A stretch of DNA of 64,000 bases from Stegostoma tigrinum. Lineage: Eukaryota. The notes beneath the pieces were generated by a model. That model was not told the origin of the DNA. It was given only the letters and a program-made list of their open reading frames with translations, and searched no databases. A program made the position numbers and the translations under genes. Positions 18,535-47,007 of the stretch are shown here, one piece after another; position 1 is the first letter of the stretch, and each line of letters begins with the position of its first letter. The DNA lies in NCBI RefSeq assembly GCF_030684315.1, contig NC_081356.1:8072362-8136361 (forward strand), in the 5' to 3' direction.

Positions 18535-19195
18535 TCATTAGCCGTGCTAATGAGAAACTTTCTCTTTTCCTTTCAGACATTAAGACCCACAAGATTCAAC
18601 AATTCAGAGATACCCATGATCCTCTGGAACCTTCTTCCCCTCCCTAAAATGGTTTTAAATTTTCTGGACACACTTCCATACACACATGATAATGTCAGAC
18701 TTTGGACGCAGAAAGATATGGTCCTGGCAAAACGGAAACAGCTGGTGGTGATGGGTGAAGCCAAAGGGCCATCACAGCTAGAATTGAAACCTTTCTGGAC
18801 GGCATATTGTAATGGGGAGCAAGAGCGATCGTCCCAAACAAAGATCACCACCAGATACTGGCTCAACACCAGCAGGAACATCCAACGGTTTCCAAAATGA
18901 AGGTGTTGGCAAGAAGTTATGTCTGGTGGCCAGGACTGGATGCAGGCAAAGATGTATTGGTGGGTCAGTGCCCAGTGTGCCAACAAGGTCAAAAATTACA
19001 GCCAACAGCTCCCTCATGTTTGTGTGAGTGACTGGGTAAATCCTGAACTTGGTTACACATTGACTATGCAGGTCCCATCATGGGCTCGATGTTCTTGGTC
19101 ATTGTGAACATTCAGTAAAAGTGGCTAGACACGAATAAAGTTCATTCATCAAACAGGGGTATGACAAGAGAAAAACCATATGCATCTTTTGCACT

Positions 19196-19358
19196 ATAAG
19201 ATAATTAAATGTGAGGCTGGATGAACACAGCAGGCCAAGCAGCATCTCAGGAGCACAAAAGCTTTTGTGCTCCTGAGATGCTGCTTGGCCTGCTGTGTTC
19301 ATCCAGCCTCACATTTTATTATCTTGGATTCTCCAGCATCTGCAGTTCCCATTATCAC
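19196..19358. mobile_element. PLE terminal-repeat (family A, young) spacerless palindrome inside Gypsy integrase
   Basis: 64-bp arms 19198-19261 and 19262-19325, one mismatch, no spacer; tail to 19358; 15-bp TSD tgcatcttttgcact at 19181-19195 and 19359-19373. Confidence 0.95.
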
Positions 19359-20193
19359 TGCATCTTTTGCACTGTATGGATTCCGGAGAGTGTTAGTCAC
19401 AGATAATGAGCCAACGTTTACCAGCAGGGAATTTCCTAAATGTGAATAGTATTTGACATTTAAGCATTGTTCCATCATCCAATGATCTAGTGGAAAAAGC
19501 AGTCTAAACTTTGAAGGGAAGCTTAAAGAAACAGCCTGCAGCTTCACTAGGTACCAAACTGACACCAGTTCTGATTTGATTATAGGACCATCCCTCATGC
19601 AACCACAGGATAGCTCCAACAGAGTTACTAATTGGGAGAATACTCTATGCCAAATTAAATGTCATCCTTCTGCCCCTAGGGGAGAAGTTGAACTGGCAAT
19701 AGAAATATGAATGCTGGACAAAAGACTCTGCTAAACAAGAGAGACAGCTTACTTTAGGGACTAAGCTTGGTGTAGGAACCATGAAAATAGTCCTGCATGG
19801 GTAGGAGACATGGTTGGCATGGGGTCAGGTCAAGTGATGTATAAAGTTTGGGTAGGTGCGACTGTCCTGAACATGCACATGGACCATATGAAAGCTGCAA
19901 ACTCACAAATAGTGCCGGAACAAAATGCCTTTCCGAATGTTGCAGAACCTGTGTGTTCTCCTTCTCTGACAAGTGCTGTCAGAATCAGAGTTGGGCATAT
20001 CAGATGTTGCCACCTTGAGTCCTTTGCCATCTGAAGAAGGGAATGAATTTCTCCAAGGTGCTCTGGGTGCAACAGGCATGCTACTGTGTATTACATGCCA
20101 GCTGTTTCAGAAGCAATGTTGGAGGAGCCTGACTCAGTGCCAAGACGGCCCAGGAGAAGCTTAAAAAAAGTCCTCAGGCACAGAGGGGGAGAG

Positions 20194-25684: not shown

Positions 25685-25902
25685 CAGAGATAATGGGAAC
25701 TGCAGATGCTGGAGAATTCCAAGATAATAAAATGTGAGGCTGGATGAACACAGCAGGCCAAGCAGCATCTCAGGAGCACAAAAGCTGACGTTTCGGGCCT
25801 AGACCCTTCATCAGAGAGGTCTAGGCCTGAAACGTCAGCTTTTGTGCTCCTGAGATGCTGCTTGGCCTGCTGTGTTCATCCAGCCTCACATTTTATTATC
25901 TT
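25685..25902. mobile_element. PLE terminal-repeat (family A, young) fold-back
   Basis: Long arm 25685-25818 and short inverted arm ~25818-25904; 14-bp TSD ggtatagctaatgt at 25671-25684 and 25903-25916. Confidence 0.95.
25787..25814 (-). ncRNA. Minimal type I hammerhead ribozyme core (predicted)
   Basis: Minus strand reads CUGAUGA-A-GGG UCUAGG CCC-GAAA-CG-UC^AGCU. Helix III is reduced to palindromic ACGU, so it could only form in a dimer; helix I is weak. Activity is not demonstrated. Confidence 0.75.
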
Positions 25903-25939
25903 GGTATAGCTAATGTATTGGTTTTAAATTTCAAAACTT

Positions 25940-27110: not shown

Positions 27111-27244
27111 CTTTAGCCTCTAGATGCCACAATGTTCAGCACTATTCTTGTCAGCTAATATAGTGAAGCAAAAATGTTTATATACATCAAGTTCTGGATG
27201 ATATTCAGACTTGAGTTACTCAAAGGCAAGTAACATTTGTGCCA

Positions 27245-27584
27245 GAGATAATGGGAACTGCAGATGCTGGAGAATCCAAGATAACAAAGTGTGGAGCTGG
27301 ATGAACACAGCAGGCCAAGCAGCATCTTAGGACCACAAAAGCTGACGTTTCGGGCCAAGGCCCTTCATCAGAAAAGGGGGATGGGGAGACGATTCTGAAA
27401 TAAATAGGGAGAGAGGGGGAGACAGACCGAAGGTGGATAGAGGAGAAGATAGGTGCAGAGGCGGAGGTGGCTGAAAATCTGCTCGATGTCCAGTGTATGT
27501 GGCTGTGGTACCTGGTTTGCTTCAGGACGTGGTCGAGCAGTTTCAAGGCTGAAGAGACCACACGAGAGTTGCAGTGGGAGAGAG
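27245..27584 (-). mobile_element. Internally deleted PLE (family A terminal repeat plus ORF N-terminal pieces)
   Basis: Family A repeat 27245-27371; purine-rich UTR to ~27455 (shared with the 54623-54942 copy); then coding-like SLSHCNSRVVSSALKLLDHVLKQTRYHSHI and LDIEQIFSHLRL; TSD atttgtgcca at 27235-27244 and 27585-27594. Confidence 0.85.
27344..27371 (-). ncRNA. Minimal hammerhead ribozyme core (predicted)
   Basis: CUGAUGA-A-GGGC CUUG GCCC-GAAA-CG-UC; intact core with a stem II variant. Confidence 0.75.
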
Positions 27585-29784: not shown

Positions 29785-30103
29785 TTAAAATAGTATCAGA
29801 GATAATGGGAACTGCAGATGCCGGAGAATTCCAAGACAACAAAATGTGAGGCTGGATGAACACAGCAGGCCAAGCAGCACCCCAGGAGCACAAAAGCTGA
29901 CGTCTCGGGCCCAGACCCTTCATCAGATGAAGGGTCTGGGCCCAAGACGTCAGCTTTTGTGCTAAAGTCTGATGAAGGGTCTGGGCCCGAGATGTCAGCT
30001 TTTGTGCACTCTGATGAAGGGTCTGGGCCCGAGACGTCAGCTTTTGTGCTCCTGGGGTGCTGCTTGGCCTGCTGTGTTCATCCAGCCTCACATTTTGTTG
30101 TCT
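29785..30103. mobile_element. PLE terminal-repeat (family A, young) fold-back with triplicated hammerhead core and A-to-G changes
   Basis: Long arm 29796-29924, hinge 29925, three tandem core units 29926-30049, short arm to ~30106; TSD tggtacatcgggagg at 29770-29784 and 30104-30118. Confidence 0.95.
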
Positions 30104-30379
30104 TGGTACATCGGGAGGCATGCATTCAAATCTCATGAGGATAGCTGGGGAGTTTTAAATTCAATTCAATAGTAAATCTGGAAGGAAATACAACAACTTT
30201 ACCTGGTATTGCTTATATGTGAGTCCAGACCCACACTCCTATAATGAACTCTTAACTATCCTCTTAAGTGGTTTAGCAGGTTACCAGGTTGGAACAAATC
30301 ACTGCAAAAAAGTTGAATAAGAATAAAACCAAACTCAACACCCAGAATTAACCTATTATCAGAATATGACATAGAAACA

Positions 30380-30479
30380 AGCTTTTGTGCTCCTAAGGTG
30401 CTGCTTGTCCTGCTGTGTTCATCCAGCCCCACACTTCATTATCTCGGATTCTCCAGCATCTGCAGTTCCCATTATCACT
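30380..30479 (+). mobile_element. PLE terminal-repeat (family A) single copy starting at the predicted ribozyme cleavage site
   Basis: Begins agcttttgtgctcc, i.e. directly after GUC^, and ends cccattatcact. Confidence 0.85.
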
Positions 30480-30825
30480 GCTGTATGCATGCCTGGGAGA
30501 GTCTCAAAGGATTAATACTTGACTGAAAACAACAAGCATCACCGACTGAAATGATACTGCGAAGACTTGGTGAGACTGAAAAGAAATAGCACATGGAAGA
30601 TAGACCCATGGCTAGGTCATCCCATCAATCTTGTAGTGGTACAGTTCTGCTTTTTATAGCACATAAAAAAGCTACACTGTTAAAAAAAGACCTCAGAAAT
30701 TCAATGAGTGGTTCAGGGGCATCACACTTATTGTTGAATGTATGCTTCGGTGAGTTACTGTCAACTTGTAGAAATGGCAAAAGTAGGCATTGTTTCTGTA
30801 TTCATCAAAACAGCAGAGTGCTGTT

Positions 30826-31181
30826 TAGAGCTGGAGGAACACAACAGGCCAGACAGAATCAGAGGAGCTGGAAAATTGATGTTTTGGGTCGGGACCCTTC
30901 TTCAGAAAATGGTTCTGTCTTCTGTGAGATGCTTCCTTTCAGTCTCACCAAGGCCTCGTGGTGTCATTACAGTAAGTGATGCTAATTGTTCTCAATCAAA
31001 TATTAATCCTTTGAGACACTTCCAGACTTGTATACAACAGTGCTTCTTTGACATTTTCTGAAGAAGGGTCCCGGCCCGAAATGTCAACTTTCCTGCTCCT
31101 CTGATGCTCCCTGGCCCACTGTGCTCCTCCAGCTCCACACTGTGTTATCTCTGACTCCAGAATCTGCAGTTCCTGCTATCT
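30826..31181. mobile_element. PLE terminal-repeat (family A) fold-back with 140-bp unrelated spacer
   Basis: Arms 30826-30911 and 31052-31181; core ctgaagaagggtcccggcccgaaatgtc at 31058-31085; imperfect TSD cagagtgctgttt (30814-30826) / cagagtactgctt (31182-31194). Confidence 0.9.
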
Positions 31182-46771: not shown

Positions 46772-46864
46772 TAATAAAATGTGAGGCTGGATGAACACAG
46801 CAGGCCAAGCAGCATCTCAGGAGCACAAAAGCTGACGTTTCGGGCCTAGACCCTTCATCAGAGG
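46772..46864 (-). mobile_element. PLE terminal-repeat (family A, young) single tailless copy with intact hammerhead core (46834-46861)
   Basis: Identical to the matching part of the 25685-25818 arm; TSD attacatgta at 46764-46773 and 46865-46874. Confidence 0.95.
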
Positions 46865-47007
46865 ATTACATGTAGCTAGCTTGCACTAGTTAAATGCCAT
46901 CTTATATAGGATGGTAGTTAATGGATTATATTAATGAATAGATCTGTCATCAATAATGTCTGATTTCCAGTTATACTTTGCATTTGAAATAAGCCAACAT
47001 GGTTCTA

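Follow-up and report, generated by a model that had tools for sequence, protein, structure and literature searches.

Background

Insertions of endonuclease-bearing Penelope-like retroelements (PLEs) are described as 5′-truncated, joined to an inverted copy of the 5′ part and ended by a tail of 30–40 bp (PMC8557442). Palindromes at such inverted junctions have already been published together with the proposal that they arise by self-priming (PMC3846280). Metazoan PLEs carry minimal type I hammerhead ribozymes, which are characterized by CUGANGA and GAAA boxes, an extra base after A9, a G10.1–C11.1 pair, a palindromic ACGU replacing helix III and a helix I of 4–5 bp, and which cut weakly in vitro (PMC4209133); their in vivo role in animals has been called a mystery (PMC7761336). 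In the Poseidon element PAc of the green anole the hammerhead lies just upstream of two adjacent reverse transcription start sites bounding the tail in vitro, the PLE protein elongates the two target strands, and the ribozyme cuts in the presence of the protein. Its cleavage is dispensable in vitro (RNA with a cleavage-dead ribozyme inserts normally), and the RNA-seq data contain no reads ending at the cut (PMC11167929). Related strategies are known from other retrotransposons. In LINE-1 twin priming, two target-primed cDNAs copying adjacent parts of one RNA meet through short microhomology where the inversion is joined, and the target-site duplication is kept (PMC11702581), and in R2 the cut of the HDV-like ribozyme, which has been assayed, sets the full-length 5′ ends and shapes the genomic 5′ junctions, a precedent for reading a cut site from genomic DNA (PMC3774820).

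The window analysed here, a stretch of 64 kb, contains a palindromic copy (19181–19376) whose hinge coincides with the predicted cut of a hammerhead of this kind. A sequence-only reading had proposed that the template was a self-cleaved RNA whose cDNA snapped back to prime the second arm. Since the family has a very high copy number and its insertions are short and bounded by target-site duplications, cutting inside the cell is testable from the assembly alone.

Anatomy of the palindromic copy

Element coordinates are used throughout; they count from +0, the A that directly follows the predicted hammerhead cut in GUC^AGCU. The copy and its surroundings are composed as follows:

18813–19028, + strand: host sequence, a decayed LTR-retrotransposon pol remnant with an integrase zinc-binding domain (Pfam PF17921)
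19181–19198, + strand: left target-site duplication, exact over 15 bp and extending to 18 bp if one mismatch is allowed
19198–19263, element sense on the − strand: short arm, spanning +0 to +64/+65, with the sole arm mismatch
19260–19263, no strand assigned: AGCT hinge common to both arms, bases 1–4 after the predicted cut GUC^
19260–19360, + strand: long arm in element sense, +0 to +100, its final 2 nt overlapping the duplication
19326–19360, + strand: 35-nt tail on one arm only, the same tail as on copies 25685 and 29797
19359–19376, + strand: right target-site duplication

The PF17921 match adjoining the insertion has E=3e-08 and 34.1 bits, above the cut-off. Arm alignment confirmed the spacerless palindrome originally described: the inverted arms (19198–19261 and 19262–19325) measure 64 nt each, differ by one mismatch and meet with a spacer of 0 nt at caaaAGCTtttg (19261/19262). 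Folded as DNA, the hairpin reached a z of −21, and 0 of 200 shuffles were equally stable. Everything in the two arms lies 3′ of the predicted cut, and the AGCT formed by the first bases after GUC^ is common to both, in agreement with the earlier claims of a hinge on the cut and of a join via this self-complementary tetramer. The duplication had been given as 15 bp; these are exact, but the direct repeat 19181–19198/19359–19376 matches at 17/18 positions overall, so that an 18-bp duplication with one substitution is the likelier interpretation. Beyond the palindrome the right arm continues for the 35 nt of the tail. The copy is a real, young and ordinary 5′-truncated fold-back insertion of the PLE type, its apparent youth being read from one mismatch between the arms and one in the duplication.

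Relation to Penelope-like retroelements and to sibling copies

The family is likely Penelope-like, as claimed before and in agreement with its insertion anatomy. Copy 19181–19376 has an inverted, 5′-truncated copy adjoining its 5′ end, a tail within the range of 30–40 bp on one end only (35 nt; the 3′ end peaks of X1 and X17, two of the public runs described below, lie 36 nt apart), and a target-site duplication of variable length (18 bp here, 9–19 bp in siblings 21653, 25685, 29797, 36036 and 46772). With Penelope and Poseidon insertions it shares heavy 5′ truncation, the head-to-head inverted 5′-truncated copy, the one-ended tail, the target-site duplication and the junction palindrome (PMC8557442, PMC3846280, PMC2377424). 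Unlike them, it measures only about 160 bp, contains neither an ORF nor a ribozyme core and hinges on the predicted cut. Because none of the ORFs in the window connects the family with a PLE reverse transcriptase, membership rests on this anatomy. In a search for PLE reverse transcriptase or GIY-YIG frames, the longest stop-to-stop frame in the window was 171 aa, and a longer-protein search for a linked reverse transcriptase with a translated sibling passed 0 of 57 candidates, which is weak evidence. The repeat presumably resembles those of cartilaginous fishes; in viral, metagenome and GTDB contigs a 31-nt family pattern had 0 matches, and the 4 matches to a 21-nt pattern were dropped as chance matches of 21–27 nt.

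Other element classes were considered and rejected. MITEs and fold-back DNA transposons have fixed terminal inverted repeats and a fixed short duplication, whereas here the arms differ by the tail, the inner ends vary and the duplications range from 9 to 19 bp. A non-LTR retrozyme requires tandem units with a complete hammerhead, of which copy 19181–19376 has neither the tandem nor the core.

More than 20 related pieces of the family are present within the window, many of them fold-backs bounded by target-site duplications and composed of one short and one long arm; this inverted-copy arrangement recurs in 25685, 29797, 36036, 21653, 62639 and others. The siblings most relevant for the argument are:

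25685–25904, no strand assigned: young fold-back with an intact hammerhead motif, arms starting at about −33 and −19, 14-bp duplication
27243–27461, − strand: longer sibling with upstream sequence, the reference for read alignment
30380–30477, + strand: sibling without an inverted arm, starting exactly at +0, 5′ junction without microhomology
46772–46863, − strand: young solo sibling spanning −30 to about +61, with an intact hammerhead motif and a 10-bp duplication

The predicted hammerhead

Intact siblings (25779–25819, 46826–46866 and 27336–27376, all on the − strand) read CTGATGA..GAAACGTC^AGCTTTTGTG, with the layout CTGATGA-A-GGGTCTAGGCCC-GAAACGTC^AGC; both arms of copy 19181–19376 begin at AGCT. 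The motif occurs in the terminal repeat of the siblings and is absent from the palindromic copy. The siblings possess the minimal type I features of metazoan PLE hammerheads, namely the core boxes, the extra base after A9, G10.1–C11.1, the palindromic 15.2–16.2 segment in the place of helix III, and helix II (PMC4209133). In an alignment of 13 copies, whose relatedness weakens the shuffle control, helix II is paired in 98% of the cells and one of its pairs occurs as U-A, U-G and C-G. The predicted helix I comprises only about 2 bp, as in a D. virilis variant, versus 4–5 bp in minimal type I hammerheads (PMC4209133), and is paired in 81% of the cells, some rows of which hold flanking DNA there. 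Rfam gave 0 matches at the gathering score. The minimum-energy RNA fold pairs the segment from −28 to +1 (z 0.45, no better than shuffles), and this favoured fold is predicted to be an inactive hairpin.

Two 3′ ends and two probable primings

Four public runs were aligned on sibling 27230–27465, a reference with private changes: X1 (140,465 contigs), X8 (33,158, from a second organism), X14 (40,687 raw bisulfite reads carrying the same species label) and X17 (2,082 contigs). Among the best 24 of 985 rows of loose ends, the strongest with unrelated flanks are located at 27279/27280 (+64/+63), with 2910 and 1075 contigs in X1 and 1051 and 265 contigs in X8; a further loose end at 27243 (+100) comprises 1392 contigs in X1. 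The arms of copy 19181–19376 end at +64/65 and +100, the two main 3′ ends of the family, as do those of copies 25685 and 29797, and solo copy 46772 ends near +61 with a duplication of its own. As the arm ends correspond to the two main 3′ ends and the PLE protein extends both target strands (PMC11167929), the arms are likely separately primed first-strand cDNAs, begun on opposite target strands, and not one cDNA snapping back.

A similar motif, ATTATC(T), precedes each of the two main 3′ ends (element +56 to +67 and +89 to +100, corresponding to 19316–19327 and 19349–19360) and may specify the two reverse transcription start sites. Furthermore, X1 contains contigs, 41 in the top row, that join the tail end (+100, 27243) to an inverted short end (about +63, 27277–27288); these 3′-to-3′ junctions are the reverse of the usual arrangement.

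Positions of hinges and 5′ ends

The sequence-only reading would lead one to expect a sharp peak of hinges and 5′ ends at GUC^A. Hand curation of the window gave 25 further arm starts (both arms of copy 19181–19376 excluded, the 29797 insertion contributing four, and some stops of old copies possibly reflecting divergence from the reference). The interval from −26 to −35 holds 14 of them, another 2 are located far upstream and 9 elsewhere, including 1 at 0. The chance of at least one start at +0 among these 9 ends outside the main cluster is 10–20%. Short copies thus begin most often just before the CUGA core (e.g. 25817, 29919–29931, 29968, 30010, 46863, 36165, 62731, 31054 and 2305), and the only 5′-end peak among the rows listed is found at −31 (27374; 76 contigs in X8). 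The starts at −26 to −35 may represent a fixed 5′ end of uncut RNA, given either by the transcription start or by an exonuclease or reverse transcriptase stop at the ribozyme hairpin.

Hinge reads were taken from the best 15 of 199 joint rows, 7 of which derive from X14 and total 734 reads; each further joint row holds at most about 56 reads. At face value none of the listed X14 rows falls on AGCT, owing to the private changes of the reference and the bisulfite conversion of C. Hairpins resist bisulfite, on which the row assignment rests: a fully converted simulation produced two-arm alignments in 0 of 64 cases, and therefore a hairpin-protected model was used. With a guessed aligner score (match 1, mismatch −3) and C>T placed no more than 6 nt from the loop, a single simulated setting reproduces 7/7 listed X14 rows; other score settings shift some classes between rows, e.g. 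AGCT into 27327–27332. Under this setting the rows would be assigned as follows:

27332–27340: 71 reads from 54 start places, AGCT palindrome
27327–27332: 115 reads, hinge 0/+9 or +9/+10
27350–27354 (three rows): 437 reads, GGCC/CTAG loop of stem II or further upstream
27355/6–27375: 111 reads, type of copy 25685

By this simulation, 548 of the 734 listed reads (75%), among which library chimeras are possible, hinge at least 9 bases upstream of the cut, 71 (about 10%) would fit the AGCT hinge, and at most 186 (25%) would hinge at or after the cut. The 548 reads keep sequence 5′ of the cut and thus require uncut RNA. The expected peak is contradicted by the single start at the cut among 25 in the window and by the tenth or so of listed reads, and AGCT is not the dominant site but belongs to a set of several hinge classes within or near the hammerhead. 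Consequently, and contrary to the sequence-only reading, cleavage cannot explain inverted PLE ends in general; most copies of the window also retain sequence 5′ of the cut.

Further read data concern the immediate surroundings of the cut. The depth of first mates on the minus strand, a measure also shaped by alignment clipping, drops by 11% across the cut versus 36%, 46% and 78% further upstream, and one X17 contig starts at −1. The equally good palindrome ACGT (−5 to −2) has no row among those listed, for which reason AGCT may be mildly favoured. Logan contigs show almost no hinge rows; palindromes drop out of de Bruijn assemblies, so that few are expected. The −33/−19 hinge of 25685–25904, with a 2-nt GG overlap, appears to be recurrent according to the 111 listed reads assigned to it by simulation. 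The X14 fold-back reads appear largely unconverted and would mimic non-CpG methylation at these repeats.

Origin of the spacerless hinge

Two-primer synthesis with annealing on AGCT, irrespective of whether the template was cut, accounts very probably for copy 19181–19376. On balance we favour the version in which a 5′-truncated insertion of a likely PLE arose from two cDNAs joined on AGCT, a ribozyme cut not being needed. In this mechanistic scenario both nicked target strands would prime reverse transcription, one at +100 and one at +64 relative to the predicted cut. The self-complementary AGCT would then allow the resulting cDNAs to anneal and be joined head to head, which yields the spacerless hinge. 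The cDNAs might stop near 0 by pausing at the base of the predicted −28 to +1 RNA hairpin, or longer cDNAs might be trimmed after annealing. Accordingly, the copy is probably a mis-join of the ordinary kind over four bases; as a hint of ribozyme cutting in the cell it is weak at best. Against an uncut template stand the exactness of the hinge in both arms, the start of copy 30380 at +0 without microhomology, and the at most 186 of 734 listed reads (25%) that, by simulated assignment, could be cDNAs ending at the cut.

The two independent primings and the microhomology annealing that we infer resemble LINE-1 twin priming in the two target-primed cDNAs, the short-microhomology inversion junction and the retained duplication. 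In contrast to LINE-1, where adjacent parts of one RNA are copied, both cDNAs would copy the same stretch here, which generates a palindrome (PMC11702581). Likewise, the family is comparable to PAc with respect to the two adjacent start sites bounding the tail, the extension of both target strands and the hammerhead just upstream, a likeness of anatomy that does not imply assignment to Poseidon. Different from PAc, for which no RNA-seq reads ended at the cut, one other copy of the window and some reads fit such an end (PMC11167929).

The principal alternative also involves two primers but starts from hammerhead-cut RNA, the run-off cDNAs ending in AGCT-3′ and annealing like sticky ends, as a minority route beside the uncut one. 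We consider it possible but rather unlikely, and a ribozyme-cut template for this copy, taken by itself, remains doubtful. In its favour, besides the exact hinge and copy 30380, 71–186 of the 734 listed reads fit, by simulation, ends at or just after the cut, no ACGT row accompanies them among those listed, and the siblings conserve the minimal hammerhead features and helix II pairing. Moreover, the anole PLE hammerhead cuts in the presence of its protein (PMC11167929), and R2 ribozyme sites shape genomic 5′ junctions (PMC3774820), although the R2 cut sets full-length 5′ ends and the cut predicted here is a minority end at most. However, a sharp peak is missing, with 75% of the listed hinge reads (by simulation) and 14 of the 25 window ends upstream; helix I is short and the favoured predicted fold inactive; and minimal PLE hammerheads are weak in vitro (PMC4209133). 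Finally, the enzyme could be held up by the predicted RNA hairpin, whose end coincides with the predicted cut. A footprint of in vivo cleavage, as originally claimed, is therefore unproven, because AGCT microhomology and the hairpin ending at +1 give the same junction on uncut RNA.

A later deletion is improbable. A longer fold-back like 25685, in which the AGCT tetramers flank a 50-nt inner segment, would give exactly this hinge upon removal of the segment between them, and microhomology deletions have been reported in Penelope copies (PMC3846280). Yet the copy is young, with one mismatch each in arms and duplication, and the reads that fit the hinge by simulation start at 54 places in about 1% of one run, which suggests its recurrence at many loci. 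Moreover, a copy decaying towards a perfect palindrome would be moving in the less stable direction.

Very improbable is the snap-back proposed initially, in which a single cDNA from cut RNA folds on its terminal AGCT and primes the second arm. Self-priming has been put forward for palindromic PLE junctions (PMC3846280), and in a 45-nt model the 3′ base of a cDNA ending at the cut is paired in cis with P=0.59. A palindrome of 4 nt, however, is too short for a primer hairpin to close. When modelled in cis, such a cDNA folds as GCT:AGC around a loop of 6 nt, which would lead to a 0/+9 junction instead of a spacerless palindrome, and the second arm stops at the modal 3′ end of the family, the second of its main ends and also the end of solo copies.

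An assembly or library fold-back artefact hardly merits consideration: read chimeras can produce perfect palindromes, but the 18-bp duplication, the arm ends at the two 3′ ends of the family, the arm mismatch and the many similar siblings speak against it.

Implications for cleavage in the cell

Copy 19181–19376 alone does not settle whether minimal PLE hammerheads cut in cells. The present data indicate that cleavage is not the general route to inverted ends, in agreement with its dispensability in vitro and with the lack of anole RNA-seq reads ending there (PMC11167929). We tentatively raise the possibility, which we regard as less probable than its negation, that a tenth to a quarter of the family fold-backs derive from hammerhead-cut RNA, and that the class near −30 marks a second, fixed 5′ end of uncut RNA. 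If so, thousands of copies would document that the minimal hammerhead of a metazoan Penelope element cleaves in vivo, the −30 class would map the 5′ end of uncut RNA at the ribozyme edge, and one genome-wide end histogram would read both ends. In the openly accessible literature we found no published peak of genomic PLE ends at the cut; Fig. S2 of PMC11167929 may already show genomic 5′ ends close to it.

Further fold-backs of the window

The arms of the old fold-back 30824–31181, which has a 10-bp duplication, enclose a copy (79%) of the neighbouring 30476–30609 in inverted orientation. From its sequence, this fold-back is best read as a local DNA capture that preserves the empty site of the younger copy 30380, a site kept in the older inverted paralog 30909–31042 with 33/42 matches; comparison with this paralog is what reveals the lack of microhomology at the 5′ junction of copy 30380. 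In fold-back 29797–30106 three restarts of the short arm, each at about −29 and each re-entering near +10, follow one another with a 42-bp period. The pattern resembles repeated jumps between templates at the end of an RNA close to −30. The long arm of this fold-back extends 12 nt past the usual tail end, and similar letters beyond +100 occur in X17. The arms of the old fold-back 2181–2472 start at −28 and −31 and are separated by 84 bp of unrelated sequence.
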